Positions 2,800-20,482 are shown, numbered from the stretch's first letter. The stretch is DNA of 24,000 nucleotides from Streptomycetales bacterium (GCA_050699195.1 JBOHCZ010000226.1:1573-25572); one strand, 5' to 3'. Numbers and translations: made by a program. Notes: generated by a model from the letters alone, not told the origin.

Positions 2800-2811
2800 C
2801 CGTGACGTCGG

Positions 2812-2835
2812 CGCGCCGGGACCGGACCGGGCGCG
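2812..2835. terminator. GC-rich hairpin between convergent STAS and LCP genes
   Basis: cgcgccggg / ccgggcgcg form a 9-bp stem with one mismatch and a 6-nt loop. It lies in the 59-nt gap between two convergent stop codons. There is no U-tract. Confidence 0.3.
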
Positions 2836-2858
2836 GGGCTTGTCCTGGCCCGGCTGCT

Positions 2859-4436: not shown

Positions 4437-4638
4437 TGCATGCGCGGACCAGCATCGGGGTCAACGCCATGATCGCCGGGGGTAGAACCTCCACAGATCG
4501 ACTAGACGGGCCTAAAACACAGAGTTTCCTCCGACCGGCCTATCCGGTGGCGGCGCTGCGGCGACCCGATGGCGCATGATCGGACCTGACCGAAGGTCGC
4601 CAATGCACGGCCCTGTCCCACCGGCCTCTGGAGGCACC

Positions 4639-5313: not shown

Positions 5314-5483
5314 GCAAGTCCTCGACCGCCGCAGGCGGGATCGTGTCTGTGGCCGATACCGGCCGTCCTGCCGGGAAGTCGCGGGCGGTATCGAACCGTT
5401 GAGCCCGGCCGCCCGTGTGGTCCGGTAGGGAGATCGCCGGCCGTGCCCAGGGCGGCCGGCGCGGCGTCGGGAGAGGGAGAGCC

Positions 5484-6143: not shown

Positions 6144-6145
6144 AC

Positions 6146-6166
6146 CCGGACGGCGGTCTCGTCCGG
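6146..6166 (+). terminator. Hairpin directly after the CHRD-like gene stop
   Basis: ccggacg-N7-cgtccgg forms a 7-bp stem starting 3 nt after the TGA at 6141-6143. There is no U-tract, which is common in high-GC actinobacteria. Confidence 0.3.
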
Positions 6167-6293
6167 TACGTCTCGGGCGGTACGGGCCACGATCACGTCA
6201 GCCGTTACCCGATCTTTCTTTGCCCTGGTCTCTACCGCCGAGTAGGTTGGCCGGACTCGGGGCACGTCGGTCGGCTGTCGAGAAGGGGCAGAG

Positions 6294-7145
6294 ATGAGGA
6301 TCCGCGTTCCGTTATTGCTCGCTACGGCGCTCGCGATGGTGTTCCCCGCGGCGGCGGCGTACGCCGAGTCTGATTCCGCGGCATCGTCGAGCTACGTCGA
6401 GCTGAAGGCGCCACAGCCCGGCTGGTACACCCCGGAGCTGCACCAGAAGGTGCTGGCGGCCGCCGAGCGTGGCGAGGGGGTCCCGATCCCCGAGGGCACC
6501 GAGTACGAGGCCAGTGGCCTCGCGTTCACCGGGATCCGTCCGGGTGCGTGGATGATCTCGCCTGCGGGTTGCACGCTGAACTTCGTCTTCGGTGGTCCCG
6601 GCGACTTTTACATCGGCACCGCGGGCCACTGCTCCAAGGTCGGCGAGGAGGTCACGATCATCGCCGCGCCCGGAGTTCTGATGAACATCGGCACGACGGT
6701 GAAGAGCGTCGACAACGGGGTAGGCAACGACTTCTCGCTCATCGACGTGCGGCCTGCGATGGAGCAGCACGTCAACCCGTCGATGGCGTACTTCGGCGGG
6801 CCCACGGCCGCTGGTAACCCACAGGTCACCGACATCGTCGAGCACGCGGGCCACGGGCTGGTCATCGGCACCGGCGGAACGCCTCGCGCCGGCGTGGTCG
6901 CGTTCCGCGGCCGAGGTGACACAGGAAGCAGCGATGCCTTCGCCTGGGTCGGTGCGGCCTCTCCGGGCGACTCCGGCTCTCCGGTACGGCTCGCCTCGGG
7001 TCAGGCCGCGGGAGACCTGACGCACCTCGTGATCGGTGGCAAGTACCTGCCCGCGGACACCGCCGGCACGACCATCGCTCGGATGCTCCAGATCGCCGGC
7101 AAGCCGCTGGCGACGGCGCCGAACGTGCCCGACCCGACGAGCTGA
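6294..7145 (+). CDS. Secreted S1 (chymotrypsin/alpha-lytic-type) serine peptidase
   Basis: The signal peptide is MRIRVPLLLATALAMVFPAAAAYA. The catalytic triad contexts are TAGHC (His), NDFSLI (Asp) and GDSGSP (Ser). SD gaagggg lies upstream. Confidence 0.85.
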   Translation: MRIRVPLLLATALAMVFPAAAAYAESDSAASSSYVELKAPQPGWYTPELHQKVLAAAERGEGVPIPEGTEYEASGLAFTGIRPGAWMISPAGCTLNFVFGGPGDFYIGTAGHCSKVGEEVTIIAAPGVLMNIGTTVKSVDNGVGNDFSLIDVRPAMEQHVNPSMAYFGGPTAAGNPQVTDIVEHAGHGLVIGTGGTPRAGVVAFRGRGDTGSSDAFAWVGAASPGDSGSPVRLASGQAAGDLTHLVIGGKYLPADTAGTTIARMLQIAGKPLATAPNVPDPTS

Positions 7146-7174
7146 GGCGGCCGGCCGCGCCGCGTTCCTGCGAG

Positions 7175-7450
7175 CTAACGTCCGTGCTGCGTCAGGTAGT
7201 CGACGTAGAGCGGGCGCAGCTCGTCGGCCAGCTCGCCCTCACCGGACCGCAGCAGGTCCCCGACCAGGGCGGACAGCCTGAAGACGTCGGTCTCGGCCTT
7301 GTCCACGTGCCCACGCGCGGCCTCGGCGGCCGGGATCGCCCTGAGCAGGCGCCACAGGAAGACGGCATCCAGGCGGTGCACCGCGAGCCGGACAGCGCGG
7401 CGGTGCAACTCCTCGGATGTCAGCTCCTCGAATTCGCGGGAATCCGCCAC
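7175..7450 (-). CDS. Small conserved hypothetical protein (91 aa, helical, acidic)
   Basis: GC3 is very high across the whole ORF. It starts at GTG with no obvious SD. I recognise no domain. The product is MADSREFEELTSEELHRRAVRLAVHRLDAVFLWRLLRAIPAAEAA... Confidence 0.6.
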   Translation of the reverse strand: MADSREFEELTSEELHRRAVRLAVHRLDAVFLWRLLRAIPAAEAARGHVDKAETDVFRLSALVGDLLRSGEGELADELRPLYVDYLTQHGR

Positions 7451-7744
7451 GGAAGTTAGCTTATCGAGTGCTTGGGCCGGGAGTGGTGGATCGGAGTCGT
7501 GAGATGCGCTGGGATATTTCTCCGGAGGCGGTCGAGATCAGACTATTTCCTCGTTCTACCGTGCGAATACCGGAATGCCCCACCTGGCCGCGATGGCGGA
7601 GCTGAGCACCAGGTCAGGGCGGCGTAGCGGCCGTTCACCGGCCATTGTCATCCGTTCGGCGTAGGGGAGGGGAGCGAGCCAGCCCAACCGGGCGGCATTT
7701 GGGGGAATATCCGATCTGTTACGTTCGAGATCTTTTCCACGTGA

Positions 7745-7772
7745 TTGACACCCCGACCCGCAAGCGTAGCGT
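7745..7772 (+). promoter_or_regulatory. Candidate housekeeping-sigma promoter for the hydrogenase accessory operon
   Basis: A perfect TTGACA (7745-7750), a 16-nt spacer and TAGCGT (7767-7772, matching the actinobacterial TANNNT -10) sit 30 nt upstream of ATG 7802. SD ggaaggg is at 7787-7793. Confidence 0.4.
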
Positions 7773-7801
7773 GCTGGCATGGGTACGGAAGGGTCCATCT
7801 C

Positions 7802-8422
7802 ATGACCCCCCTCTCAGCTGCCCACAAGGCTGCGGGTGAAGCTCTCAGCCGGCGGGAGGGTCCCGGGCGGGCGCTTGCCGAGGACGCGGAGCGGATAGCC
7901 CGGGCGTGTTACGACATGGCTGTGCGCTTCCACAGAGGCGGCAAGCTGATCGTCTTCGGCAACGGCGGTTGCAGCACCGATTCCAACCATGTTGCCGTCG
8001 AGTTCGTGCATCCCGTGGTCGTCGGCAAGCGCGCGCTGCCCGCCATGGCGCTCACCAGCGACGTGGCGACGGTCACGGGGATCGCGAACCGTGAAGGGTT
8101 CGGCGAGGTCTTCGCCCATCAACTCGGGCGCTTCGCAGCCCCGTCCGACATCGCCCTCGGTCTGTCGTCCGACGGCCGCTGCGTGAACGTGCTCCGTGGC
8201 CTCGAGGTTGCGGGAGAGCTGGGACTCCTGACGGTCGCCCTCGTCGGCGGCGACGGCGGTGACATCGCGAGCAGCCCCGCGGTGGATCACGCCGTGGTGG
8301 CTCGCTCGGCAGACCCGGCCGTGGTCAAGGAGATCCACGTGACCACTTACCACATCCTCTGGGAACTGGTGCATGTGTTCTTCGAACAGCCCGGGGTTCT
8401 GGGGCCCCAGGTGATCAGGTGA
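7802..8422 (+). CDS. SIS-domain protein (GmhA/phosphoheptose-isomerase-like), copy 1
   Basis: GGKLIVFGNGGCSTDSNHVAVEFVHP, ALGLSSDGRCVNVL and the C-terminal EIHVTTYHILWELVH give the SIS fold pattern. It is a paralogue of the gene at 8676-9389. Confidence 0.8.
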   Translation: MTPLSAAHKAAGEALSRREGPGRALAEDAERIARACYDMAVRFHRGGKLIVFGNGGCSTDSNHVAVEFVHPVVVGKRALPAMALTSDVATVTGIANREGFGEVFAHQLGRFAAPSDIALGLSSDGRCVNVLRGLEVAGELGLLTVALVGGDGGDIASSPAVDHAVVARSADPAVVKEIHVTTYHILWELVHVFFEQPGVLGPQVIR

Positions 8423-8676
8423 CACATGACTCACCGTCTATCCGTGACTCCGCGACCCGCGTTCCGGTCACGGAGTGTCACGCAGATGTCTGCGTGACGT
8501 GTTCGGACGAGGCGGTTCCGGTTCGCGTCGTACGGCTGCTGGACCGGGATCTGGCGCTGGTCGACACCGGGGGGTCCGAGGAAGAGGTGAGCGTCGCGCT
8601 CGTCGACGCCGGTGTGGGCGACACCGTTCTGGTGCACGCCAAGGAGGCGATCGCCGTGGTCCCAGGGGGGATCTGA
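8419..8676 (+). CDS. HypC/HupF-family (OB-fold) chaperone-like protein with a non-canonical N-terminus
   Basis: The C-terminal two thirds match the HypC barrel (LALVDTGG..EEVSVALVDAGVGDTVLVHAKEAIAVV). The N-terminus is a 20-aa extension plus CHADVCVTCSDEA instead of the invariant MC(L/I)(G/A)(I/V)P. The GTG start overlaps the upstream stop (GTGA). Confidence 0.7.
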   Translation: MTHDSPSIRDSATRVPVTECHADVCVTCSDEAVPVRVVRLLDRDLALVDTGGSEEEVSVALVDAGVGDTVLVHAKEAIAVVPGGI

Positions 8677-9389
8677 TGGCTGCCGGCGAGGGGGCACCCT
8701 CCGGGGGTGTCGAGGCGCTATATCCGTTTCTCTACTCCGACGGGCGACGTGATCTCGGTGCCGTCCTCGAGGAGGCCCGCAGGTCGACGGCCGAGAAGGC
8801 GGCCGAGATCGTCGAGCTCCGGCGGCGGGTCATCGAACAGCAGGCCGCGGCGCTGGCCCGGTGCGCCACCACGATGGCCGCCAGCTTCGCGGCTGGGGGC
8901 CGGCTGTTCGCGTTCGGGAACGGCGGATCAAGCACGGATGCCCAGGACGTGGCGACCACCTTCCTGCACCCGGCGTACGGCCGGCCGTTGCCGGCTTCGT
9001 GCCTGACCAGCGACGTCGCCGTGGTCACGGCGTTGTCCAACGACGTCGGGTTCGACGTCGTCTTCGCGCGCCAGCTCGCCGCGTTCGGGCGGCGGGGGGA
9101 CCTCGCGCTCGGCCTGTCCACCAGTGGTGGGTCGGCAAACGTTCTCCGGGCATTCGAGGAGGCCAGCCGCATCGGCATGGTGACTGTCGGGTTGGCGGGT
9201 TACCAGGGCGGCCGGATGGCCGAGCTCGATGCCCTCGACCATCTCTTCGTCATCCCGTCGGCGTCGGTGCACCGCATCCAGGAGGCCCAGACGACCGCGT
9301 ACCACGCCCTCTGGGAGCTCGTCCAGCGGGCACTCGAGGCGGCGCAGCTACCGCACAACGTCGGCCACCGAGCAGACGGCGCCCGGTGA
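8676..9389 (+). CDS. SIS-domain protein (GmhA-like), copy 2
   Basis: GGRLFAFGNGGSSTDAQDVATTFLHP, LGLSTSGGSANVL and VHRIQEAQTTAYHALWELV are present. The ATG overlaps the upstream TGA by 1 nt (TGATG). Confidence 0.8.
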   Translation: MAAGEGAPSGGVEALYPFLYSDGRRDLGAVLEEARRSTAEKAAEIVELRRRVIEQQAAALARCATTMAASFAAGGRLFAFGNGGSSTDAQDVATTFLHPAYGRPLPASCLTSDVAVVTALSNDVGFDVVFARQLAAFGRRGDLALGLSTSGGSANVLRAFEEASRIGMVTVGLAGYQGGRMAELDALDHLFVIPSASVHRIQEAQTTAYHALWELVQRALEAAQLPHNVGHRADGAR

Positions 9390-9422
9390 TCCTGGCCACC
9401 GGGCGGCCGGGGGAGGTACACG

Positions 9423-10364
9423 ATGGCGAACACGATCACGCAAGAGCCCAACCTGCGGGAGGCTGGGTCCCGGGTCGAGGACGTGCTCACCGAGCTCGCC
9501 GCGACCGGCGACCCGCGCGTCAAGCAGCGGGCGGAGGAGCTCGCGCAGCTCCTGATTCAGCTCTACGGGGGTGGACTCAGCCGGATGGTCGAGATCGTCG
9601 AGGCAGCGGCCGCGGACGCGCAGCAGTTGATGGAGCACTTCGCCGATGACGAACTCGTGGCCAGCCTGCTCGTCGTCCACGGGCTGCATCCGCTGGACGT
9701 GACCGAACGGGTCCAGCGCGCCCTGGACAAGGTGCGGCCCTACCTCGGCTCCCACGCGGGCGGGGTGCAGTTCCTCGGAGTGGACGAGGGCGGTGTCGTC
9801 GCGCTGCGGCTGGAGGGCAGCTGCGACGGCTGCCCGTCGTCGACGGTGACGGTCCGGCTCGCGATCGAGCGTGCCATCGAGGAGGCCGCACCGGAGGTCA
9901 CGCGGGTCGAGGTCGAGGGCATGACGCCCACCACGGGGCCCATCGCGGCGCCCATCACGGGGCCCACCACGGGGCCCGAGCCTGCGTTCGTACCGCTGGA
10001 GTCGCTGCAGCAACGGCCCACCGCGGACGGGGAGCGCGCGGGGCGGTGGACGGCTCTCCCAGACATCGGCGGACTCGGGCCGGGCGAGCTGCGTTCGGTC
10101 GACATCGCAGGGACACCGGTGGTGGTGTGCAACGCCGACGGGGAGCTGTACGCCTACCGGAACGGCTGCCCGGCCTGCAGCGCCTCCCTGTCGGGCGCCG
10201 GTCTCGCCGGGGGAGTCCTCGATTGTCCCGCCTGCCACGGCCGGTACGACGTACGGCTGGCGGGTCGCGGCCTCGACGAGCCGGGGACCCACCTGGCCCC
10301 GCTGCCGCTGCTCACCGGGGGCGGCCAGACCAGGATCGCGACGCCTGCACAGGTGGCACCGTGA
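9423..10364 (+). CDS. NifU C-terminal-domain / Rieske-like fusion Fe-S protein (HucE/HhyE-like putative electron-relay protein)
   Basis: The NifU-type motif is RLEGSCDGCPSSTVT (Cys at 9822-9833). A P-T/I-T/A-G linker follows. The C-terminal Rieske-like region is YRNGCPACSASL...LDCPACHGRYD (10167-10238). SD gggggagg lies upstream. Confidence 0.75.
   Translation: MANTITQEPNLREAGSRVEDVLTELAATGDPRVKQRAEELAQLLIQLYGGGLSRMVEIVEAAAADAQQLMEHFADDELVASLLVVHGLHPLDVTERVQRALDKVRPYLGSHAGGVQFLGVDEGGVVALRLEGSCDGCPSSTVTVRLAIERAIEEAAPEVTRVEVEGMTPTTGPIAAPITGPTTGPEPAFVPLESLQQRPTADGERAGRWTALPDIGGLGPGELRSVDIAGTPVVVCNADGELYAYRNGCPACSASLSGAGLAGGVLDCPACHGRYDVRLAGRGLDEPGTHLAPLPLLTGGGQTRIATPAQVAP
9927..9974 (+). repeat. 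Imperfect 12-nt tandem repeat x4 (ccc-a[c/t]c-[a/g]cg-g[g/c]g) encoding the interdomain linker PTTG-PIAA-PITG-PTTG
   Basis: Read directly from the sequence. Units 1 and 4 are identical (cccaccacgggg), unit 3 differs from them by 1 nt and unit 2 by 3 nt. Confidence 0.8.
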
Positions 10365-11002
10365 GCACGCCGGAGGTCCTGCGGCGGCTGATGGACCGCA
10401 GCCCGCCGCCACCCCCGGGCGAGCGGTGCGAGATGTGCAGCGAGGCGCTGGCCGAGGAGCACTCCCACGTCGTCGACCTGGTGAGCCGGGGCCTGATGTG
10501 CTCGTGCCGGGCCTGCTACCTGCTCTTCACCAGCGACGGGGCGGCCGGAGGCAACTACCGCGCGGTGCCCGATCGCCACCGCTACGACCCCTCGTTCCGG
10601 CTGACCGCGGCGCAGTGGGAGGAGCTTCAGATCCCGGTGGGGCTGGCGTTCTTCTTCCGCAACTCCACCATGGGCCGTTTCGTGGCCTTCTACCCGAGCC
10701 CCGCGGGGGCGACGGAGTCCGAGCTTCCGCTCGAGACTTGGAACGACGTGCTGCGGGCGAACCCCGACGTCGCCGAGCTGGAAGCCGACGTCGAAGCGCT
10801 CCTGCTCCGCCAGCGGGGCCAGCGCTTCGAGTGCTATCTCGCCCCCATCGACGCCTGCTACGGCCTGGTCGGCCGGGTGCGGCTGCACTGGCGGGGCTTC
10901 GAGGGCGGCGAGGAGGTCTGGCAGGAGATCGACACGTTCTTCGGGCAGCTCCGCGAGCGTGGCGAGCCGGCGGGAGGACAGGAGGGGGACGGCGATGGGT
11001 GA
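10361..11002 (+). CDS. Conserved hydrogenase-cluster protein of unknown function (DUF5947-like), Cys-motif N-terminus
   Basis: The GTG start is in a GTGA overlap with the upstream stop. The N-terminus reads CEMCSEAL..EHSHVVDL.SRGLMCSCRACYLLF (C-x2-C ... C-x-C-x2-C). GC3 is high. The family name is recalled from memory, not searched. Confidence 0.7.
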   Translation: MSTPEVLRRLMDRSPPPPPGERCEMCSEALAEEHSHVVDLVSRGLMCSCRACYLLFTSDGAAGGNYRAVPDRHRYDPSFRLTAAQWEELQIPVGLAFFFRNSTMGRFVAFYPSPAGATESELPLETWNDVLRANPDVAELEADVEALLLRQRGQRFECYLAPIDACYGLVGRVRLHWRGFEGGEEVWQEIDTFFGQLRERGEPAGGQEGDGDG

Positions 11003-11639
11003 GCTGGTGTTCGACTGCTTCGACGCCCGTCCGGAGCGCTACGCCGCGAGCCCGACGCTGACCTTCCGGCTGCGCGTCTCCGAGACGACCGGCCAGGACA
11101 TCCACACGATCGCCCTGCGCTGCCAGATCCGCATCGAGCCGGCGAAGCGGCGATACTCGGCGGCCGAGGCGGAACGGCTGCACGACCTGTTCGGCGACAC
11201 CCCGCGCTGGGGCGACACCCTCAAGCCGTTCCAGTTCGTCACCGTGCCGGCCATGGTCCCGGGGTTCCGCGGCAGCACCGAGATCGAGCTGTCCGCGCCC
11301 TGTACCTATGACCTGGAGGTCGCCGCCGGGCAGTACTTCCACGCGCTCGACGACGGCGAGATCCCGCTGCTGCTGCTGTTCTCCGGCACGGTTTTCGCCA
11401 AGGGGCCCGCCGGTCTGGCCGTCGAACAGGTGCCGTGGCACAAGGAGTGTGGCTACCGCCTGCCGGCCCGGATGTGGCGCGAGCTGATGGACCTGTACTT
11501 CCCGAACAGCGCCTGGCTGCGGCTGCGCCGCGAAACGGTCGACTCGCTGCAGCGCTTCAAGTCCCGCAACGCGATCCCGACCTGGGACGACACGTTCGAG
11601 GCGCTGCTCGAGCAGGCCGGGGTCGAGGGGCACCCGTGA
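10995..11639 (+). CDS. Conserved hydrogenase-cluster protein of unknown function (DUF6084-like)
   Basis: The ATG overlaps the upstream gene by 8 nt (ATGGGTGA). The 214-aa product MGELVFDCFDARPERYAASPTLTFRLRV... has no catalytic motif that I recognise. GC3 is high. Confidence 0.7.
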   Translation: MGELVFDCFDARPERYAASPTLTFRLRVSETTGQDIHTIALRCQIRIEPAKRRYSAAEAERLHDLFGDTPRWGDTLKPFQFVTVPAMVPGFRGSTEIELSAPCTYDLEVAAGQYFHALDDGEIPLLLLFSGTVFAKGPAGLAVEQVPWHKECGYRLPARMWRELMDLYFPNSAWLRLRRETVDSLQRFKSRNAIPTWDDTFEALLEQAGVEGHP

Positions 11640-12964
11640 GTGTCGAGGCCGCCCTCGACGTGGGCCGCAGGGTGGCCGACGCCGTGCTGCTCGAGGGCTA
11701 CGTCCTCTACCCCTACCGGGCCTCCGCCCAGAAGAACCGGGTGCGCTGGCAGTTCGGTGTGCTGACCCCGCGGGAGGCCGCCTCCACCGAGCCGTGGTTC
11801 AGCCAGACCGAGTGCCTCGTCGAGCCCGGCGCGCGTCCGGCCCTCGACATCACGGCGCGTTTCCTGCAGGTCAGGTCCCGGACCGGTGCCCTCCCCTGGG
11901 ACGAGGGGGTGGTGCACGAGGTACCCGTTACCGCGCCCCTCGACCGCCCCGGGCCCGAGCAGCGCTTCCCCTTCGAGATCGAGGGTGGGGAGGATGCCGA
12001 GGACGTCGACGGCCACCGGGTGCTCCGCCGCCGCTGGCCGCTGTCGGGCGTGATCACGGTCGGCGTCGAGCGCCTCGAGGGCCCCTACGGCCTTCTGAAG
12101 CTCCGGGTGCGCGTGGAGAACCACACCCCCTGGAAGGCGCCCGGGAGGCCGGAGCACAGCGACCCCGAGCCGGTACCGCGCGAGACGGTGATCCGCCACG
12201 CTCTGGTTTCCACCCACGCCCTGCTCGCCGCGCACGACGCGGTCTTCGTGTCGCTGCTCGACCCGCCGGAGTGGGCCCGCCCCTCGGCCGAGTCGTGCAC
12301 GAACCAGCACACCTGGCCGGTGCTGGTCGGCGGGGGAAACCAGGCCATGCTGTCGTCGCCCATCATCCTGTACGACCACCCGGAGATCGCCCCGGAGAGT
12401 CCGGCCGACCTGTGCGACGCCACCGAGATCGACGAGATCCTGACGCTGCGGACGATGGCCCTCACCGACGAGGAGAAGGCCGAGGCGCGGGCCACCGACG
12501 CCAGGGCGGCCGGCATCATCGACCGGGTCGACACCATGCCGGCCGAGGTGCTGGAACGGCTGCACGGCGCGGTGCGCTACCTGCGCGACGCCTCGGCCAC
12601 CGGCCGGACCGGCGCCCCACCGTGGTGGGACCCCGGTGTGGACCGGTCCGTCTCCCCTGAGCACGACAGCGTGCAGGTCCCCGGCGGGCGGGCGGCCAAG
12701 GGCAGCAAGGTGGTCCTGTGGCCCGGGGGCCGCGGCGCCGGGCGCCGGCTCACCGACGCGCAGGACATCTTCCTCAAGGGGCGGGTGGCCACGGTCACCG
12801 CGGTCCTCTTCGACGTCGACGGGGGCAGCCACCTCGCGGTGACCTTCGACGACGATCCCGCTGCCGACCTGCACGAGTGGTACGGGCGCTACCTCTACTT
12901 CACGCCCGACGAGGTCCAGCTCGTGAAGGGGGCGGACCAGCTGATGAAGGGGGAGGAACCGTGA
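11636..12964 (+). CDS. Conserved hydrogenase-cluster protein of unknown function (442 aa)
   Basis: The GTG start is in a GTGA overlap. The product begins VSVEAALDVGRRVADAVLLEGYVLYPYRASAQKNRVRWQFGVL... GC3 is high throughout. I recognise no domain. Confidence 0.7.
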   Translation: MSVEAALDVGRRVADAVLLEGYVLYPYRASAQKNRVRWQFGVLTPREAASTEPWFSQTECLVEPGARPALDITARFLQVRSRTGALPWDEGVVHEVPVTAPLDRPGPEQRFPFEIEGGEDAEDVDGHRVLRRRWPLSGVITVGVERLEGPYGLLKLRVRVENHTPWKAPGRPEHSDPEPVPRETVIRHALVSTHALLAAHDAVFVSLLDPPEWARPSAESCTNQHTWPVLVGGGNQAMLSSPIILYDHPEIAPESPADLCDATEIDEILTLRTMALTDEEKAEARATDARAAGIIDRVDTMPAEVLERLHGAVRYLRDASATGRTGAPPWWDPGVDRSVSPEHDSVQVPGGRAAKGSKVVLWPGGRGAGRRLTDAQDIFLKGRVATVTAVLFDVDGGSHLAVTFDDDPAADLHEWYGRYLYFTPDEVQLVKGADQLMKGEEP

Positions 12965-13491
12965 GGGTGCTGGTCGCGGGCGTCGGCAACATCTTCCTCG
13001 GCGATGACGGGTTCGGCGTCGAGGTGGCGCGGCGGCTCGCCGCGGAGCCGCTGCCGGAGGGCGTCGAGGTCGCCGACTTCGGTATCCGCGGCGTACACCT
13101 CGCCTACCAGCTGCTCGACGGCTACGACCTGCTGATCCTGGTCGACGCGGTCACGCGCGGGGAGGAACCGGGCACGGTCTATGTCATCGAGCCCGATCTC
13201 GACGCGATCGAGCCGGTCGGACCCGACGCGGAGGGCCCGCCGATCGACGCCCACGGCATGGCGCCAGACGCGGTCTTCGCCCTGCTCAAGACGTTCGGCG
13301 GCAGCGTCGACCGGGTCCTGGTCGTCGCGTGCGAGCCGACCGACGTCGAGGAGCGGATGGGGTTGAGCCCGCCGGTGGCCGGGGCGGTGGACCGGGCGAT
13401 CGGCGCGGTCCTGGATCTCCTCGCCGAACCGGCGAGCCGGGCGGCAACGGCAGCAGGGCGGGCAACCAGGCGGGGGAGGGACCCGGGGTGA
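12961..13491 (+). CDS. [NiFe]-hydrogenase maturation endopeptidase (HyaD/HybD/HupD family)
   Basis: The N-terminal signature is VLVAGVGNIFLGDDGFGVEVARRL, followed by LILVDAV and IDAHGM (the Asp/His metal ligand pattern). The GTG start is in a GTGA overlap. Confidence 0.85.
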   Translation: MRVLVAGVGNIFLGDDGFGVEVARRLAAEPLPEGVEVADFGIRGVHLAYQLLDGYDLLILVDAVTRGEEPGTVYVIEPDLDAIEPVGPDAEGPPIDAHGMAPDAVFALLKTFGGSVDRVLVVACEPTDVEERMGLSPPVAGAVDRAIGAVLDLLAEPASRAATAAGRATRRGRDPG

Positions 13492-14009
13492 CGAGGTACC
13501 AGATCACCCCGGACGACTCCCGGGTGTGGATCGAGGCGCGGTCCAGCCTCCACCCGATCCACGGGGAGGCGACGGGCCTGGGCGGCGAGCTGGACGTCGA
13601 GGTGTCCGGCGACCGCCTGGACCTCTCGACGCCGCCGGCGATGCGGCTGCAGCTGCCCGTGACCCGCCTGGAGTCCGGCAACGCGCTGTACGACAGGGAG
13701 ATGCGCCGCAGGATCGAGTCCAGGCGTTACCCCGTGATCAACGGTGCGGCGCGCGAGGTACGCGAGCTCGAGGGTGGCGCGGGCCGCTACCACGTCCGCG
13801 GCGATCTCACCTTCCACGGCGTGACCCGCACGGTCGACGGCGAGATCACCGTGAGCGCGCCGGGCGAGGGCACCCTCGTCATCGAAGGCGAACAGGTCTT
13901 CGACATCCGTGATTTCGATGTCGCCCCACCCAAGATCCTCACGCTACGCGTCCACCCGGAGGTGCGGGTCCGAATCCGGGCGGAGGCCCGGCGGCAGGAG
14001 CCGGAATGA
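13488..14009 (+). CDS. YceI-like (polyisoprenoid-binding lipocalin-type) domain protein
   Basis: The pattern Y.I.P..S.V.I.A.S.....G...GL.GEL, ..L.SGN.L.D......I....YP and Y.V.GDLTFHGVTR matches YceI family sequences as I recall them. There is no signal peptide. The GTG start is in a GTGA overlap with the protease gene. Confidence 0.65.
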   Translation: MTRYQITPDDSRVWIEARSSLHPIHGEATGLGGELDVEVSGDRLDLSTPPAMRLQLPVTRLESGNALYDREMRRRIESRRYPVINGAAREVRELEGGAGRYHVRGDLTFHGVTRTVDGEITVSAPGEGTLVIEGEQVFDIRDFDVAPPKILTLRVHPEVRVRIRAEARRQEPE

Positions 14010-14033
14010 CACGGATCCGGAGGAGGTGATCGC

Positions 14034-14375
14034 GTGCACGAGTTCGGCATGTGCGAAGCGATCCTGGACGCCGTCGAGCGGCGTGCGGCCGGCCGCAGGG
14101 TCACCCGCGTGCGGGTACGCGTCGGAGCCCTGCACCACGTCGCCCCACCGGCCATGGACCAGGCATTCGCACTCGCGGCGGAGGGCACCGTCGCCGACGG
14201 CGCCGATGTCGAGCTCCGCACCGTGCCCGTGCAGGTCGCCTGCCGCGCGTGTCGGAAGACCGGTGAATCCACCGACCCGCTGACGGTCTGCCCCTCGTGC
14301 GGCGGCGCGGACATCGAGCTGACCGGAGGCGACGAGGTTGTCCTCGAGTCCATCGAGCTCGGGACGTCGGTGTAG
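14034..14375 (+). CDS. hypA: Hydrogenase nickel-insertion protein HypA
   Basis: A GTG start gives the MHE N-terminus (Ni-binding). The Zn site is CRAC...CPSCG. The product is 113 aa. SD aggagg is at 14021. Confidence 0.9.
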   Translation: MHEFGMCEAILDAVERRAAGRRVTRVRVRVGALHHVAPPAMDQAFALAAEGTVADGADVELRTVPVQVACRACRKTGESTDPLTVCPSCGGADIELTGGDEVVLESIELGTSV

Positions 14376-14390
14376 CGGAAGGGGCAGCAG

Positions 14391-14663
14391 ATGTGTCTGG
14401 GGATTCCCGGAGAGGTCGTCGAGATCCTCGAGGACCGGCCCGACCTCGCCCGGGTGGACGTGAGTGGGGTGCGCCGGGCGATCAACATCGGCCTGCTCGA
14501 AGGCGAGGGCGTACGACCTGGCGACTGGATCTTGATCCATGTCGGGTTCGCGCTGTCGAAGATCGACGAGGACGAGGCCAGGTCGGCGATGGAGTTCCTG
14601 GAAGGCATCGGGCAGGCCTACGACGACGAGATCCAAGCCCTGCAGGAATCGAGGATCGAGTAG
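14391..14663 (+). CDS. hypC: Hydrogenase assembly chaperone HypC
   Basis: It has the canonical MCLGIPGEVVEI N-terminus and ..GDWILIHVGFAL. The product is 90 aa. Confidence 0.92.
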   Translation: MCLGIPGEVVEILEDRPDLARVDVSGVRRAINIGLLEGEGVRPGDWILIHVGFALSKIDEDEARSAMEFLEGIGQAYDDEIQALQESRIE

Positions 14664-14695
14664 GCCGGCAGGCCCGCCCGAGGAGGTGACGAGCG

Positions 14696-15823
14696 TTGCG
14701 TTTCGTCGATGAGTACCGCGACGCGGAGAAGGCCGAGGCGCTGGCGGCCAGGATCGTCCAGATGTGCGAGCCGGGCCGGGAGTACAAGTTCATGGAGGTG
14801 TGCGGGGGGCACACCCACACCATCTACAAGCACGGCCTGGAGGACTATCTGCCGGAGAGCATCACGCTGGTCCATGGCCCGGGGTGCCCGGTGTGCGTGA
14901 TCCCGATGGGGCGTGTCGATGATGCGATCCACATCGCGGAGCAGCCGGACGTGATCATGACCTCTTTCGGGGACATGATGCGGGTGCCGGGCGGACGCGG
15001 GTCGTTCTTCGACGCGAAGGCGGCGGGTGCGGACATCAGGATGGTGTACTCACCACTGGACGCGCTCAAGATCGCCCGGCGGAACCCGGAAAAGCGTGTC
15101 GTGTTCATGGCGATCGGGTTCGAGACGACCGCGCCGTCCACGGCGATGACGGTGTTGCGGGCTGCGGCGGAGGGCATCGAGAACTTCTCGGTCTTCTGCA
15201 ACCACGTGACGATCATCCCGGCCGTCAAGGCCATCCTGGACTCACCCGATCTTCGGCTCGACGGGTTCATCGGGCCAGGGCACGTGTCGACGGTGATCGG
15301 GTGCCGGCCCTATGAGTTCATCGCCGGTGACTATCACAAGCCGCTGGTGGTGGCGGGGTTCGAGCCGCTGGACATCTTGCAGTCGATCTATCTGATCCTG
15401 GCCCAGCTGGCCGAGGGCCGTTGCGAGGTCGGCAACCAGTACGGCCGGGTGGTGCCCTGGGAGGGCAACCGCAAGGCGCTGCGGGTCATCGGTGAGGTCA
15501 TGGAGCTGCGGCCGTACTTCGAGTGGCGGGGCCTGGGGTTCATCTCGCACTCGGCGCTCCGGATGCGGGAGACCTTCGCGTCGTTCGACGCCGAGCGGAT
15601 CTTCGACCTGCCTGGGGTGCGGGTGGCCGACCCGAAGGCGTGCCAGTGCGGTGAGGTGCTCAAGGGGGTGCTCAAGCCGTGGGAGTGCAAGGTGTTCGGC
15701 ACCGCCTGCACGCCGGAGACCCCGATCGGGACCTGCATGGTCTCCAGCGAGGGCGCGTGCGCGGCGTACTACAACTTCGGGCGGTTCACGCGTGAGCGGG
15801 TGAGGGAGGCGACACGCACGTGA
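14696..15823 (+). CDS. hypD: Hydrogenase Fe(CN)2CO assembly protein HypD
   Basis: The TTG start follows SD gaggagg. Motifs present are CGGHTH, GPGCPVCV, GFETTAPS and GPGHVS. Confidence 0.93.
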   Translation: MRFVDEYRDAEKAEALAARIVQMCEPGREYKFMEVCGGHTHTIYKHGLEDYLPESITLVHGPGCPVCVIPMGRVDDAIHIAEQPDVIMTSFGDMMRVPGGRGSFFDAKAAGADIRMVYSPLDALKIARRNPEKRVVFMAIGFETTAPSTAMTVLRAAAEGIENFSVFCNHVTIIPAVKAILDSPDLRLDGFIGPGHVSTVIGCRPYEFIAGDYHKPLVVAGFEPLDILQSIYLILAQLAEGRCEVGNQYGRVVPWEGNRKALRVIGEVMELRPYFEWRGLGFISHSALRMRETFASFDAERIFDLPGVRVADPKACQCGEVLKGVLKPWECKVFGTACTPETPIGTCMVSSEGACAAYYNFGRFTRERVREATRT

Positions 15824-16923
15824 GTCCCCAGTACCCGGCCGGCCGGGAGCACGCGAGCCGCGAGCAGCAGGTCCTGGCGCGGATCGAGAAGGCGCGGCGG
15901 CGTAAGCCGAAGGTCAAGGACGAGCGGGTCACGCTGGCGCACGGGGCCGGCGGCAAGGCCACGCACACCCTCGTCGAGGCGATCTTCCTCGACGCCTTCC
16001 GCAACCCACTGCTCGAGCCGCTCGACGATCAGGCGGTGTTCACCGCGAACGGGGTCCGGTTGGCCTTCTCGACCGACTCGTTCGTGGTGTCCCCGCTGTT
16101 CTTCCCGGGAGGTGACATCGGCGATCTCGCGGTGCACGGGACGGTCAACGATCTGGCGATGTCGGGCGCCCGGCCGCTGTACCTGTCGGCCGGGTTCATC
16201 CTGGAGGAGGGGTTCCCTGTCGCGGACCTGCGGCGGATCGTCGAGTCGATGGCCCGTGCGGCCCGGGTTGCCGACGTGCAGGTGGTGACCGGCGACACCA
16301 AGGTGGTGCAGCGGGGCAAGGCCGACGGGTGCTACATCAACACCGCCGGGATCGGCGTGATCGAGCACGACCTCACCCTCGGCGCCGGCGAGGTCCGGCC
16401 CGGGGACGCGGTGCTGGTGTCCGGGCCGATCGGGGAGCACGGCATAACGGTCATGCTCGCGCGCGGCGAGCTGGACATCGACACGGACCTGACCTCCGAC
16501 ACCGCCCCGCTGGCCGAGCCCGTGGCCCGGCTGCTGGCGGCGACCAGCGGCCTGCGGTGCCTGCGCGATGCGACCCGCGGGGGCGTGGCCACCATCTGCA
16601 ACGAGATCGCCCGGGCATCGGAGACGGCGGTCGTGCTGGACGAGAACGCGATCCCGATGCGACCGGAGGTACGCGGGGCATCGGAGATCCTGGGCATCGA
16701 CCCGCTCTACGTCGCCTGCGAGGGCCGCTTCGTCGCGGTGGTGGACGGGCCCGAAGCGGAGGCCGCCCTGCAGGCGCTGCGTTCACGTCCCCTCGGCCGC
16801 GACGCCGCCCTCATCGGGCATGTCAGAGACGATCCCCCGGGCCTGGTGCTCCTCAAGACCGAGTTCGGCGGCACCCGCATCGTCGACGTACTCATCGGCG
16901 ACCCGCTCCCCCGCATCTGCTGA
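15820..16923 (+). CDS. hypE: Hydrogenase maturation protein HypE (thiocarboxamide dehydratase)
   Basis: The GTG start is in a GTGA overlap with hypD. It has AIR-synthase-like PurM-fold motifs (LAHGAGG, GDTKVV) and the invariant C-terminal PRIC. Confidence 0.93.
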   Translation: MSPQYPAGREHASREQQVLARIEKARRRKPKVKDERVTLAHGAGGKATHTLVEAIFLDAFRNPLLEPLDDQAVFTANGVRLAFSTDSFVVSPLFFPGGDIGDLAVHGTVNDLAMSGARPLYLSAGFILEEGFPVADLRRIVESMARAARVADVQVVTGDTKVVQRGKADGCYINTAGIGVIEHDLTLGAGEVRPGDAVLVSGPIGEHGITVMLARGELDIDTDLTSDTAPLAEPVARLLAATSGLRCLRDATRGGVATICNEIARASETAVVLDENAIPMRPEVRGASEILGIDPLYVACEGRFVAVVDGPEAEAALQALRSRPLGRDAALIGHVRDDPPGLVLLKTEFGGTRIVDVLIGDPLPRIC

Positions 16924-16945
16924 GCCACCCGGAGGTGTGCTGAGG

Positions 16946-17359
16946 TCAGCCCCCCTGGTCGCCCGGGCGGAGGTTGGGCATCCGCGGGTCGATCGGCTGG
17001 CCCGGGGACACCCCCGCCTCCTCGCGGTCCTTCCTGCGCTTCTCCTCGCTGGCGCCCAGGGCCCGCTCGTTGCCCTGCGCGCTCGTGCTCACCCCGACAC
17101 CCAGCGGCGACGCGGCGGTGGTGTCGGTCGCCGGGACCCCCGAGCGCTCGACGTCGGAGACCACCCGCCCGGGGCCGGGCGGGCCCCAGGGACCCGACAT
17201 CACCTTGTGCATGTGCTCGGTGAAGGTCGGCTGGGTGGTGAGCTGCCTGCCCTCGTACGGCGGGACGAGACCACCCGGCTGCTGCTCCCCACCCGGGTAA
17301 GCAGCGGGGCCGAGGTTGGTCTGCACGTCCGCCTTCGGCTGCCTGCCCTTCATCACCAT
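16946..17359 (-). CDS. Gly/Pro-rich hydrophilic hypothetical protein (137 aa)
   Basis: GC3 is uniformly high. SD ggggag lies 4 nt upstream of ATG 17359. The product is MVMKGRQPKADVQTNLGPAAYPGGEQQPGG...EEKRRKDREEAG.. with no TM segment and no domain I recognise. Confidence 0.6.
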   Translation of the reverse strand: MVMKGRQPKADVQTNLGPAAYPGGEQQPGGLVPPYEGRQLTTQPTFTEHMHKVMSGPWGPPGPGRVVSDVERSGVPATDTTAASPLGVGVSTSAQGNERALGASEEKRRKDREEAGVSPGQPIDPRMPNLRPGDQGG

Positions 17360-17396
17360 CAGCTCCCCTCTGACAGCATCTCTCTCAGAGCGGCTA

Positions 17397-17428
17397 CCCG
17401 GCATGCGGCATGCGAAACGGCAGCCGGG
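17397..17428 (-). terminator. Hairpin between hypF stop and the 137-aa gene
   Basis: cccggc(a)tgc ... gcagccggg forms a 9-bp stem with one bulge and a 13-nt loop. It contains a tandem ggcatgc-ggcatgc. There is no U-tract. Confidence 0.3.
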
Positions 17429-17433
17429 AGTCG

Positions 17434-19728
17434 TCAGCCGGCCGCGCGCTCGCGGGCGGCTGCGACCGCCACCTGGCCCAGGCTGACGCCCCCGTCGTTG
17501 GGGGGCACGCGGTGGTGCACGAGGACGCGGAAGCCCCGCTGCTCGAGGCCCTCCACGGCGAGGTGCAGCAGCAGCTGGTTCTGGAACACCCCGCCGGACA
17601 GCGCGACCTGCGCCAGCCCCTCCTCGTCGCGGATCCGCTCGCAGCCGGCGACGATGGCGGCGGCCACGCCGCGGTGGAAGCGTGCTGCGATCGTCGCGCT
17701 GCCCACGCCGGCACGCAGGTCGTCGACGACCGCCCGTACGAGATCCGTGCCCTGCACCCGGAACGGGTCGTCCCCGGTGATCGCGGCCGGGTAACCGGCG
17801 CGCTCGGCGAGGTCGGCGCTCTGCTCCAGCTCGATGGCGGCCTGGCCCTCGTAGTTGACGGTGTCCCGGACGCCGGTCAGGGCGGCCACCGCGTCGAAGA
17901 GCCGGCCGGCGCTCGACGTGGCCGGAGCGTTCATCTCCTTTCTGGCGAGCGCGGTCACGCTCGCCCAGCGCCCGGGGTTGCGGCGGGTCACGGCCAGGCC
18001 CGCCGGCGGCGCGCCGCCGTAGGCAGCGTCGAGGTACGCGGCGGCCATCCGCCACGGCTGCCTGATCGCCGCCGTGCCGCCCGGCATGGGCACGGGAGCG
18101 AGGCTGCCGCGCCGTTCGAAGCCTGCCAGGTCGGCCACCAGGAACTCGCCGCCCCAGATAGTGCCGTCGGTGCCGTACCCGAGCCCGTCGAACGCCACGC
18201 CGATAACCCGGCCGTGCTCGGCGTTGTCGGTGAGGCAGGACGCCACGTGGGCGTGGTGGTGCTGGACGCCCACGAGCTCGACGCTGTCGTCACAGTCCAG
18301 CTGCCGGGCGTACTTGGTGGAGAGGTACTCCGGGTGCAGGTCGTGCGCGACGACCTGCGGGCGGATGTCGAACAGCCGCCGGAAGTGCTCGATGCCCTCG
18401 GTGTAGGAGCGCAGCGTCTCGTAGTTCTCGAGGTCGCCGATGTGGTGTGAGACGAAGGCGCGGCGGCTCTTGGCGAGGCAGAAGGTGTTCTTCAGCTCCG
18501 CGCCGCAGCCGAGCACCGCGCGGCGCAGCGGTGCCGCGAGCGCCAGCGGCTGCGGCGCGTACCCGCGGGAGCGGCGGACCGGCAGCTCACGGCCGCGGAA
18601 CAGGCGGGTCACCGAGTCGTCGGTGCGGATGTGGATCGGCCGGTCGTGGGTGAGGTATGCGTCGGTGATCCCGGCCAGCCGGCGCATCGCGTCCTCGTCG
18701 TGGTAGGCGATCGGCTCGTCGGAGGCGTTGCCGCTGGTGAGTACGAACGGCCCGGGCAGCTCGCGGGCGAGCAGGTGGTGCAGCGGCGTGTACGGGAGCA
18801 TGACCCCGAGGAAGCGGTTGCCCGGCGCGACCGGGCCCGCCACCGGGGTGTCCGGGTGGCGGCGCAGCAGCACGATCGGCCTGCGGGGGCTGGTGAGGGC
18901 GCGCTCCTCGGCCTCGTCGACCGTGCACAGCCGCCGCGCGGTCTCGACGTCGGCCACCATCACCGCGAACGGCTTGTCCTCGCGGTGCTTGCGGGACCGC
19001 AGGGTGCCTGCTGCCGGCTCGGACGTGGCGTCGGCGGCCAGGTGGTAGCCGCCCAGCCCCTTGATCGCGACGATCTTGCCGTCACGCAGCAGGGCGGCGG
19101 CCGTGTCCAACGGATCGCCCTCGACCGGCTTGCCGCGCGCGTCGATGAGCTGCAGGGACGGCCCGCAGGCCGGGCAGCACACCGGCTGGGCGTGGAACCG
19201 CCGGTCGGCCGGGTCGTGGTACTCCCGGGCGCAGTCACCGCACATGGCGAAATCCGCCATGGTGGTGGATGGCCGGTCGTAAGGAACGTCGCGGATGATC
19301 GTGAAGCGCGGGCCGCAGTTCGTGCAGTTCGTGAACGGGTAGCGGTGCCGGCGGTCCCCGTTGTCGGACATCTCGCGTAGGCAGTCCGCGCAGGTCGCCG
19401 TGTCGGGCGCGATGAGCGCCCGCCGCTCGCCGCCGCCCTTGCTGTCGACGATCACGAACCGGGTGCCGCCCCGCGGCTCCACGGCCTCGACGCTGATGCG
19501 GTCGATCAGCGCGAGCGGCGGGGCCTCGCGCTCCAGCGCCGTACGGAACCGGGTGAGGGACTCCGGCTCGCCCTCGACCTCGATGAACACGCCGTCGGGG
19601 TCGTTGCCGACCAGCCCTGCGAGCTCGTGGCGGAGCGCCAGCGCGTACACGAACGGGCGGAACCCCACACCCTGGACGACGCCCTCCACGCGGACCCGGC
19701 TCCGGGTACGGGCGGCACTACCGATCAT
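17434..19728 (-). CDS. hypF: Carbamoyltransferase HypF
   Basis: It has an acylphosphatase domain (VEGVVQGVGFRPFVY). Two Zn-finger pairs are present (CADCLREM...CTNCGPRF and CGDCAREY...CCPACGP). A YrdC-like domain (IVAIKGLGGYHLA) and a Kae1-like C-terminal domain follow. I start it at ATG 19728 (MIGSAARTRSRVRVEG), because the 44-codon extension to 19860 has low GC3 and overlaps mazF. Confidence 0.92.
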   Translation of the reverse strand: MIGSAARTRSRVRVEGVVQGVGFRPFVYALALRHELAGLVGNDPDGVFIEVEGEPESLTRFRTALEREAPPLALIDRISVEAVEPRGGTRFVIVDSKGGGERRALIAPDTATCADCLREMSDNGDRRHRYPFTNCTNCGPRFTIIRDVPYDRPSTTMADFAMCGDCAREYHDPADRRFHAQPVCCPACGPSLQLIDARGKPVEGDPLDTAAALLRDGKIVAIKGLGGYHLAADATSEPAAGTLRSRKHREDKPFAVMVADVETARRLCTVDEAEERALTSPRRPIVLLRRHPDTPVAGPVAPGNRFLGVMLPYTPLHHLLARELPGPFVLTSGNASDEPIAYHDEDAMRRLAGITDAYLTHDRPIHIRTDDSVTRLFRGRELPVRRSRGYAPQPLALAAPLRRAVLGCGAELKNTFCLAKSRRAFVSHHIGDLENYETLRSYTEGIEHFRRLFDIRPQVVAHDLHPEYLSTKYARQLDCDDSVELVGVQHHHAHVASCLTDNAEHGRVIGVAFDGLGYGTDGTIWGGEFLVADLAGFERRGSLAPVPMPGGTAAIRQPWRMAAAYLDAAYGGAPPAGLAVTRRNPGRWASVTALARKEMNAPATSSAGRLFDAVAALTGVRDTVNYEGQAAIELEQSADLAERAGYPAAITGDDPFRVQGTDLVRAVVDDLRAGVGSATIAARFHRGVAAAIVAGCERIRDEEGLAQVALSGGVFQNQLLLHLAVEGLEQRGFRVLVHHRVPPNDGGVSLGQVAVAAARERAAG

Positions 19729-19849: not shown

Positions 19850-20197
19850 CTACAGGGCAAGGTGCACGCGAAGTGCCTCGTCGAGCGCGCGCACCTGAGC
19901 CATCGTCAGCGCACCGCACCGCCTACCGACTCGCTCGACGGAGATTGATCGGACCTGTTCAGCTTGGGCCTTCGCATCGCGCGGCAGCCCCGTCGTCGCG
20001 GCTGGGAGCAGGACCTGGAACGGGTAGATCCGCTCGATATTGGACGTGACCGGAACGACCGTGACGACGCCGAGGCCAAGACGTGTCGCCGTCGCGTTGG
20101 CGGCATCGTTACTCACGACGACCGCCGGCCGGGTGTTGCTGGCCTCAGAACCGCGCACCGGGTCGAGGTCGACCAGGCAGATCTCGCCGCGCCGCAC
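19850..20197 (-). CDS. mazF: MazF/PemK-family type II toxin (endoribonuclease)
   Basis: (M)RRGEICLVDLDPVRGSEASNTRPAVVVSNDAANATATRLG..VVTVVPVTSN..RIYPFQVLL......GLPRDAKAQAEQVRSIS is the classic MazF pattern. From memory it closely recalls mycobacterial MazF9-type sequences. The GTG start immediately follows the antitoxin stop. Confidence 0.9.
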   Translation of the reverse strand: MRRGEICLVDLDPVRGSEASNTRPAVVVSNDAANATATRLGLGVVTVVPVTSNIERIYPFQVLLPAATTGLPRDAKAQAEQVRSISVERVGRRCGALTMAQVRALDEALRVHLAL

Positions 20198-20419
20198 TTA
20201 GCCCTCGAGGCCGTCTGCGGTGACCGCAGCCCAGACCTCGGCCTCTCCGGAAACGGTCCAGGAACGCCAGGCGTCCTCATATTCCCCAGCGAGCTCACCC
20301 GATCGGAGCAACCCGACCGCCTTGTGCAGCGCAGCGGACCTCGACACGTAGCCCTGAGACCGGGCGTACGCGTCGAGGAACTCGACATCTTCCCGTGGGA
20401 GACTCACACTCACCTTCAT
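20198..20419 (-). CDS. mazE: Ribbon-helix-helix MazE-type antitoxin
   Basis: MKVSVSLPREDVEFLDAYARSQGYVSRSAALHKAV shows the RHH N-terminus. The product is 73 aa. Its stop TAA directly abuts the toxin GTG. Confidence 0.85.
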   Translation of the reverse strand: MKVSVSLPREDVEFLDAYARSQGYVSRSAALHKAVGLLRSGELAGEYEDAWRSWTVSGEAEVWAAVTADGLEG

Positions 20420-20424
20420 ACCGT

Positions 20425-20482
20425 GATACTACCATTGGTACTACCAGGAGCAAGCACGGGAAGTCCTACCGTAGGCCTACCC
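20425..20482. promoter_or_regulatory. Candidate mazEF operator/promoter: array of TACC-containing direct and inverted repeats
   Basis: g[a/g]tactacca occurs twice (20425-20434 and 20437-20446) and encloses the palindrome tacca-t-tggta. cctac-c-gtagg-cctac lies at 20465-20480 and includes the 10-bp perfect palindrome gtaggcctac. The array starts 6 nt upstream of the mazE ATG. Confidence 0.4.

Follow-up and report, generated by a model that had tools for sequence, protein, structure and literature searches.

A [NiFe]-hydrogenase accessory operon without its structural genes in a Streptomycetales bacterium, the probable accessory half of a split group 1h system

Group 1h [NiFe]-hydrogenases (Hhy) drive atmospheric H2 scavenging in soil. 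The Hyp maturation steps and the C-terminal processing of the large subunit are established knowledge of these protein families, and the hyp operon of Escherichia coli already offers an example of Hyp maturases that serve, in trans, structural operons located elsewhere. The isoenzyme-specific endopeptidases of E. coli remain within the structural operons. Carbonactinospora thermoautotrophica is described as growing on H2 and CO2. This organism was reported with hydrogenases of two groups, 1h and 2a (PMC9977764). In Mycobacterium smegmatis (MSMEG_2722-2718), HhyE is needed for Hhy activity and co-migrates with the small subunit (HhyS) and the large subunit (HhyL); HhyE is marked by a NifU-like domain and a C-terminal double CxxC, and its gene is normally found within the structural operon (Islam et al. 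2019, PMC6883350). The present analysis concerns a 12-kb cluster of hydrogenase accessory and maturation genes (7802-19728) in a 24,000-bp stretch of DNA from a Streptomycetales bacterium (GCA_050699195.1, JBOHCZ010000226.1:1573-25572), referred to here as the window. The cluster was assigned by its gene content to a putative group 1h system, the "actinobacterial-type", high-affinity, O2-insensitive class, and contained neither hhyS nor hhyL.

Comparison with the "actinobacterial-type" (group 1h/5) locus on pHG1 of Cupriavidus necator H16 (H16_RS31840-31905) showed collinear genes for the NifU-like, DUF5947, DUF6084, ~450-aa and endopeptidase proteins with 35-65% identity, and SIS, HypC, HypD, HypE, HypA and HypF were present in both. 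The pHG1 locus differs from the window in that the genes for both subunits immediately precede the NifU-like gene, hypB is present, the NifU-like protein is short (192 aa) and has no Rieske-like domain, there is a single SIS gene, and YceI is missing. The accessory set including the SIS-HypC-SIS trio was also found in C. thermoautotrophica (GCA_001543895.1), which belongs to the same family-level lineage and has no hypB within 10 kb, but here the locus is contiguous, running from hhyS-hhyL-hhyE onwards, with the SIS trio located 3' of it and in the opposite orientation. The accessory proteins of C. thermoautotrophica were 52-76% identical to those of the window (HypD 91%) and less similar than those of a Streptosporangiales metagenome-assembled genome (MAG) (GCA_009379995.1, locus L006; 55-89% identity). 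Locus L006 has the same gene order as the window save for the structural genes and YceI, and likewise has no hypB; unlike the window, it keeps hhyS-hhyL, does not encode YceI, and carries additional genes in the interval from hypE to hypF. The CxxC motifs of the window HhyE (NifU-like CxxC and C-terminal double CxxC) matched the signature described for M. smegmatis HhyE (PMC6883350), although hhyE lies inside the structural operon in M. smegmatis and beside the maturation genes, apart from hhyS-hhyL, in the window. Unlike the E. coli hyp operon, the unlinked parts in the window are the specific protease and HhyE.

The window makes up 24,000 bp of a 25,575-bp contig of a fragmented MAG (locus tags ACRDPT_). 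Its G+C content was about 71% and its composition was uniform throughout, and a frame analysis of G+C content at third codon positions (GC3) singled out the genuine genes. Every gene that had been named in the first-pass annotation of this DNA was upheld at its coordinates by Pfam and NCBIfam. Thirteen plus-strand genes (7802-16923) were separated by intergenic spacing of -8 to +33 nt, and this packing is consistent with a single operon. No internal stops were found in the thirteen genes or in the convergent hypF, and HypA, HypC, HypD, HypE and HypF were all present with their catalytic motifs.

The pHG1 group 1h proteins served as tblastn queries for the missing genes, and the window was searched in every one of its six frames. 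There was no small subunit (best E 0.012), no large subunit (best E 0.73), no HypB (best E 0.59), and no HoxN (best E 0.26). Decayed copies of hhyS, hhyL and hypB were sought by tblastn in the unannotated region 4500-7800 and the rest of the window, and none was found. The first-pass annotation had reported that no large subunit, small subunit or HypB is encoded here, and the six-frame search agreed with it, with no trace or pseudogene remnant; accordingly the locus encodes neither HhyS nor an HhyL with RxCGxC...DPCxxCxxH. That annotation had looked for a small subunit with a Tat signal, a slightly inexact search image, as the N-termini of the group 1h small subunits of L006, C. thermoautotrophica (GCA_001543895.1) and a further locus described below (L008) have no twin-arginine motif; the absence still holds because it rests on the homology search. 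The contig DNA outside the window is at most 1,575 bp (~1.6 kb) and hhyS and hhyL together need ~2.9 kb, so the remainder is too short to hold both, and any structural genes beyond the edges of the window would be past the contig ends. The absence of hypB, which had been taken as anomalous, proved to be normal in this clade. A total of 18 out of 21 loci spanning HycI to HypE were without hypB, including every locus with the HycI-HypA-HypC order of the window, C. thermoautotrophica among them, and its absence is therefore no argument against function.

The usual position of the structural genes was obtained from a survey of 80 metagenome loci (DUF6084 query) and reference loci, of which 45 had enough sequence for the adjacency of hhyL and hhyE to be judged. 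HhyL was encoded immediately 5' of HhyE in 41 of the 45, and the four exceptions were the window, locus L005 described below, and a near-identical pair of loci (L044 and L051). The gene order of L006 was SIS-HypC-SIS-HhyS-HhyL-HhyE-DUF5947-DUF6084-unknown-HycI-HypA-HypC-HypD-HypE with HypF convergent. Its hhyS and hhyL occupy the exact position of a 33-nt junction in the window (9390-9422), and the order of the window is otherwise the same with YceI in addition. A large-subunit gene directly 5' of the NifU-like gene was also found in locus L007, in C. thermoautotrophica (three loci) and in pHG1, and the earlier statement that the structural genes belong right upstream of the NifU/Rieske gene thus agrees with the order in L006 and in 41 of 45 loci. 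The DUF5947-DUF6084-~450-aa-endopeptidase block was collinear, and it recurred in each of the six reference loci and among the surveyed metagenome loci. In one draft genome of C. thermoautotrophica (GCA_001543915.1, L011) the small-subunit match was in two overlapping pieces at 2490-3538 and no hhyS was called, which is probably a frameshift or assembly error in the draft.

The 33-nt junction, the site of hhyS-hhyL (~2.9 kb) in related loci, contained a Shine-Dalgarno sequence (GGGGGAGG) and no structural-gene remnant. A homologous junction was present in L005, and in both cases the TGA of the second SIS gene is followed by ...CCACCG...CGGCCGGGG(G)AGGTAC..., then by the ATG of hhyE and codons for (A/P)N(T/V)ITQ. 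As the junction is homologous in the two MAGs, the loss was one event in their common ancestor, and as the two were assembled independently, it is not an assembly artefact.

A G+C-rich inverted repeat (CCGGGGCC...GGCCCCGG) lies between hhyL and hhyE in canonical loci (L006 6765-6842; L007 2445-2537), and there is none in the window junction. The repeat may form an mRNA stem-loop parting the structural from the accessory genes.

The closest relative of the window was L005 (P0002, 80% identical), on contig JBOHCY010000294.1 of a Carbonactinosporaceae MAG (GCA_050699175.1). L005 was collinear with the window from STAS, LytR and three conserved unknown genes through the entire cluster to HypF, where the contig ends within hypF, and it too was without hhyS-hhyL and hypB. 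A second contig of the same MAG, JBOHCY010000383.1 (L008), encoded HhyS (355 aa) and HhyL (598 aa, P0163, MGH3345048.1) among unrelated genes, with catalase, Fur, Cpn10 and cupin on one side and PadR, CsoR and a copper ATPase on the other. The L008 HhyL has RICGICG near the N-terminus and DPCLPCGVH followed by a 25-residue C-terminal extension MYLGGDKERVVKKLHTPTAYQPGVG, the extension that the first-pass annotation had proposed to look for on any large subunit found; the protein is thus a precursor whose maturation requires an endopeptidase. With 77% identity to the large subunit of pHG1, it belongs to group 1h, and no other hydrogenase was found in the sister MAG. The L008 contig encoded no protease, HypC, HypD, HypE, HhyE, DUF5947 or DUF6084, and these missing proteins are exactly those encoded by the operon type of L005 and the window. 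The two contigs had a tetranucleotide correlation (r) of 0.993, G+C contents of 0.716 (L005) and 0.704 (L008), and protein accessions 770 apart.

Located 3' of hhyL in L008 (9501-11030) were genes for a 347-aa truncated paralogue of the 442-aa protein, a DUF6893 mini-ORF (open reading frame), and a second HypA. The 347-aa paralogue had 42-49% identity over ~318 residues to the 442-aa protein of the window and was missing the C-terminal ~100 residues, and the second HypA was only ~60% identical to all other HypA compared. In neighbour-joining trees, the L008 hypA and 347-aa gene fell outside the clade of the window, L005, L006 and L007, while the L008 HhyL grouped with L006 and L007. Because of this discordance L008 seems to be what is left of a second hhy cluster and not a simple cut-and-paste of hhyS-hhyL. 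Two clusters may have undergone complementary losses, or hhyS-hhyL may have been transferred into a second cluster that was degenerate; either course could have led to the present state. It is quite possible, if tentative, that a hybrid system was fixed in this lineage, in which hhyS-hhyL survive at a degenerate hhy cluster and depend for maturation on the accessory genes of another; such a system, if true, would be a natural demonstration of HhyE and its partners acting in trans. An AT-rich palindrome (AAGTGAGTTATATAGCTATATG...TCACTT) was observed 5' of the L008 hhyS.

For the maintenance of the operon, the ratio of nonsynonymous to synonymous substitution rates (dN/dS) was calculated by the Nei-Gojobori method (NG86) between the window and L005 genes, with HypF left out as the L005 gene is truncated. 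Amino acid identity was 73-95% across the genes. The dN/dS was 0.08 for HypD, 0.20-0.21 for HypA, HypC and HypE, 0.31 for the protease, 0.35 for HhyE and DUF5947, 0.40 for the 442-aa protein, and ~0.5 for SIS 2 and the HypC-like protein. The flanking genes had values of 0.16-0.47, similar to the 0.08-0.50 of the cluster, and the strong GC3 bias probably lowers dS and so inflates dN/dS. The earlier view that the machinery is maintained is supported by the intact genes, the catalytic motifs, and the dN/dS of 0.08-0.50 against a ~80% identical relative, which shows the cluster to be under purifying selection. A different picture was seen in L044 (1-2800) and the near-identical L051, where hhyL was reduced to its last ~20 codons and the hhyE and DUF5947 genes after it were frameshifted and truncated, respectively. 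This decaying group 1h locus is from a lower-GC organism, and in it the hhyL 3' remnant adjoins a NiCoT-type nickel transporter gene.

The operon and the convergent hypF are quite probably the accessory half of a split group 1h [NiFe]-hydrogenase whose structural genes were lost here ancestrally, are encoded unlinked, and are served in trans. The clean loss of hhyS-hhyL would have taken place between SIS 2 and hhyE in the common ancestor of the source MAG and the Carbonactinosporaceae MAG. HypF and HypE would make the cyanide ligands, HypC and HypD would build the Fe(CN)2CO unit, HypA would handle nickel, and the dedicated endopeptidase would trim the C-terminal tail of the large subunit once nickel is inserted. 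The operon would also supply the Hhy-specific partners, namely HhyE, DUF5947, DUF6084, the 442-aa protein and the SIS-HypC-SIS trio, and the enzyme encoded at the unlinked locus would be matured and served in trans by these products. The first-pass annotation had left open a split locus or orphan machinery. The split was found in the sister MAG (L005 without and L008 with hhyS-hhyL), and from the sister lineage and the selection evidence we infer that the source genome has hhyS-hhyL elsewhere and that the two loci cooperate. Unlinked structural genes as the normal arrangement in relatives, which that annotation had named as a reason to drop its reading, were found only within this narrow lineage.

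Several points weigh against a split system. A search of a 5.8-billion-protein database with the sister HhyL gave nothing full-length above 86% identity and nothing labelled as the source MAG, so that the unlinked hhyS-hhyL with its cleavable C-terminal extension was seen in the sister GCA_050699175.1 and no HhyL was recovered for the source MAG. Orthologue pairs of the window and the sister were 75-95% identical and other proteins of the source MAG were present in the protein database; since no database HhyL was close enough, the deposited source MAG is probably without a full-length hhyL, and a truncated contig-end copy or an unbinned copy would be outside the reach of the search. The fragmented state of the source MAG limits these conclusions. 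The placement of L005 and L008 in one organism rests on metagenomic binning and similar composition, the NG86 dN/dS values reaching 0.5 are not very low, and no cis-element common to the operon leader and the region upstream of the unlinked L008 hhyS was found. Unnamed NCBI HhyL matches (P0134, P0138 and others) were considered as the HhyL of the source MAG and rejected, as they carry no source-MAG accessions.

It is rather unlikely that the operon serves a [NiFe]-hydrogenase of another class at some other locus, such as a Huc-type enzyme of group 2a, instead of or besides group 1h. The possession of both 1h and 2a enzymes by C. thermoautotrophica of the same family (PMC9977764) and the generic nature of HypA, HypC, HypD, HypE and HypF as maturases would favour this, yet the window HhyE has the HhyE-type double CxxC and not the HucE-type CxH...CxxC Rieske signature, DUF5947, DUF6084, the 442-aa protein and the protease have collinear counterparts in group 1h loci only, and the one hydrogenase found in the sister MAG belongs to group 1h.

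A true orphan, in which the source organism has no [NiFe]-hydrogenase and the operon is an undecayed recent relic or is kept for another role, is unlikely. No HhyL could be attributed to the source MAG, and the several disrupted neighbours in the window suggest some genome erosion or a local assembly error. However, the loss is older than the split from a relative that is ~20% diverged in amino acids, yet the 14 genes are intact in both with dN/dS below 0.5; the relative carries hhyS-hhyL with a protease-dependent C-terminus; L044, which has truly lost hhyL, shows rapid decay of hhyE and DUF5947; and the incompleteness of the MAG readily accounts for a missing 3-kb locus. The narrower case, a source organism truly without [NiFe]-hydrogenase in which the full Hhy accessory set, endopeptidase and HhyE included, is under purifying selection, is very unlikely, and would imply a second substrate or function for the machinery. 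An assembly or binning artefact, with hhyS-hhyL dropped by misassembly or a chimeric contig, is hardly credible: the MAG has short contigs and the three flank frame disruptions could be consensus errors, but the gene order recurs in a MAG that was assembled independently, where the homologous junction carries a ribosome-binding site and start codon of its own, and the composition is uniform across the window.

With the split group 1h system as the preferred reading, what is particular to this lineage is the organisation of the locus; the system itself is known, none of its families is new, and Hyp proteins that act in trans are well documented. Stable uncoupling from hhyS-hhyL implies that co-transcription with the structural genes is dispensable. 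The genes left beside hhyS-hhyL (second hypA, DUF6893, truncated 442-aa copy) make a small natural experiment on which partners are required in cis. Metagenomic surveys in which the potential for H2 oxidation is scored from either hhyL or the accessory genes on their own can put MAGs from this lineage in the wrong class. Searches for further members were negative. The DUF6084 metagenome scan gave 80 loci with none above 69% identity and no further split-lineage members, a metagenome scan with a two-sequence HhyE alignment gave no match, and an HhyE search of a species-representative genome collection gave three distant loci only. The sole match in a plasmid search was pHG1 hypD, with no sign of the window being plasmid-borne.

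The operon begins with a 206-aa SIS-domain (GmhA-like) protein (SIS 1; 7802-8422, plus strand, Pfam SIS_2 E 8e-13), which scored under the equivalog cut-off of the NCBIfam gmhA-like model and was 84% identical to L005 and 80% identical to L006. It is followed by an 85-aa HypC/HupF-like chaperone paralogue (8419-8676, plus strand, Pfam HupF_HypC E 2e-11), in which an N-terminal ECxxxVCVTCSD, kept in L005, L006 and C. thermoautotrophica (GCA_001543895.1), replaces the canonical Met-Cys start. This gene was invariably flanked on both sides by SIS (GmhA-like) genes, the second being the 237-aa SIS 2 (8676-9389, plus strand, Pfam SIS_2 E 2e-20) with 48% identity to the pHG1 SIS protein. HhyE (9423-10364, plus strand) had a NifU-like domain (Pfam NifU E 2e-21) with CDGC and a C-terminal Rieske-fold domain (Pfam Rieske E 1e-7) with two CPAC motifs, and is a putative Fe-S partner or electron acceptor of Hhy. 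The DUF5947 gene (10361-11002, plus strand, Pfam DUF5947 E 7e-76), 45% identical to pHG1 H16_RS31855 in its product, was assigned by hand a GTG start at 10361 that overlaps the hhyE stop. The DUF6084 protein (10995-11639, plus strand, Pfam DUF6084 E 3e-93) was 90% identical to L005.

The next gene (11636-12964, plus strand) encoded the 442-aa conserved protein, which belongs to no family, matched NCBI MGH3327826.1 (ACRDPT_08565) at 100%, and had 36% identity with the 476-aa protein of pHG1. Its AlphaFold (AF2) model had a predicted local distance difference test score (pLDDT) of 80 and no convincing PDB fold match save for a C-terminal SH3/Tudor-like barrel, which is the portion absent from the L008 347-aa paralogue. 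PDB sequence searches with DUF5947, DUF6084 and the 442-aa protein gave no matches. HhyE, DUF5947, DUF6084 and the ~450-aa protein could be electron acceptors, assembly factors or scaffolds.

The HycI/HybD-family large-subunit C-terminal endopeptidase (12961-13491, plus strand) was recognised by Pfam HycI (E 4e-16) and by NCBIfam TIGR00072 (127 bits, cut-off 47). Its GDDGFG, LVD and DAHG motifs, inspected for the acidic/His metal-binding triad, were present and kept across five orthologues. A YceI-like protein (13488-14009, plus strand, Pfam YceI E 7e-14) is encoded next, its gene coupled to the endopeptidase gene by a 4-nt overlap and placed 5' of hypA. YceI in that slot was found in the window and L005 only, with DUF6893 there in L007 and directly 5' of hypA in L008; the gene is an insertion specific to the window/L005 lineage.

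The maturation genes that follow on the plus strand were HypA nickel metallochaperone (14034-14375, Pfam HypA E 1e-28, with an MHE N-terminus and two CxxC pairs), HypC with the canonical MCLGIPG start (14391-14663, Pfam HupF_HypC E 2e-25, 92% identical to L005), HypD (14696-15823, Pfam HypD E 5e-157, with GPGCPVC and GFETT motifs), and HypE (15820-16923, Pfam AIRS and AIRS_C, C-terminus PRIC, 55% identical to pHG1 HypE). On the minus strand, the convergent HypF carbamoyltransferase (17434-19728) contained all five domain types (Pfam acylphosphatase, two zf-HYPF, YrdC, HypF_C, and HypF_C_2) and had 48% identity with pHG1 HypF over 776 aa. A small hydrophilic ORF with no Pfam or NCBIfam match (16946-17359, minus strand) was located 74 nt downstream of hypF on the same strand and was 95% identical to a 115-aa protein of L005; it has an ATG at 17359 with a Shine-Dalgarno sequence, and its start is uncertain.

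A conserved non-coding leader of ~110 bp (7690-7801, plus strand; L005 6057-6159) was found upstream of the operon, with two blocks 94-97% identical to L005, as against a difference of 16-34% at synonymous sites. It contained TTGACA, a 16-nt spacer and TAGCGT, and an inverted repeat GATCT(N10)AGATC, and would fit a conserved promoter or operator. The leader element was sought upstream of hhyS in L008 and in L006 and C. thermoautotrophica (GCA_001543895.1) and was not found. A promoter/terminator consensus scan gave 0 promoters and 1 terminator-like site, not above chance. The intergenic region between a divergent 94-aa gene and the operon was 342 bp in the window and 150 bp in L005, with ~190 bp of extra DNA before the leader (7460-7690) that has no L005 counterpart.

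The earlier report of frameshifts in flanking genes was borne out, with three disrupted genes in the flanks and none in the 12-kb cluster. These were a conserved unknown gene with a 4-bp deletion (frameshift) near 5160, a SpoIIE-HATPase_c_2 gene (22547-24000) frameshifted inside the SpoIIE domain near 23419, and an internally deleted MEDS/HATPase remnant (1241-1714) that adjoins an MFS transporter gene; the last two may be true pseudogenes or consensus errors of the MAG. The gene with the 4-bp deletion is the first of four conserved genes (4639-7459) with no Pfam or NCBIfam match, which lie between LytR and the operon in both MAGs and not in L006, and which are orthologues of the L005 227-, 219- and 283-aa (plus strand) and 94-aa (minus strand) proteins with 81-91% identity. 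Immediately upstream of hypF, genes for a MazF/PemK toxin and a ribbon-helix-helix antitoxin were present on the minus strand (19850-20428).

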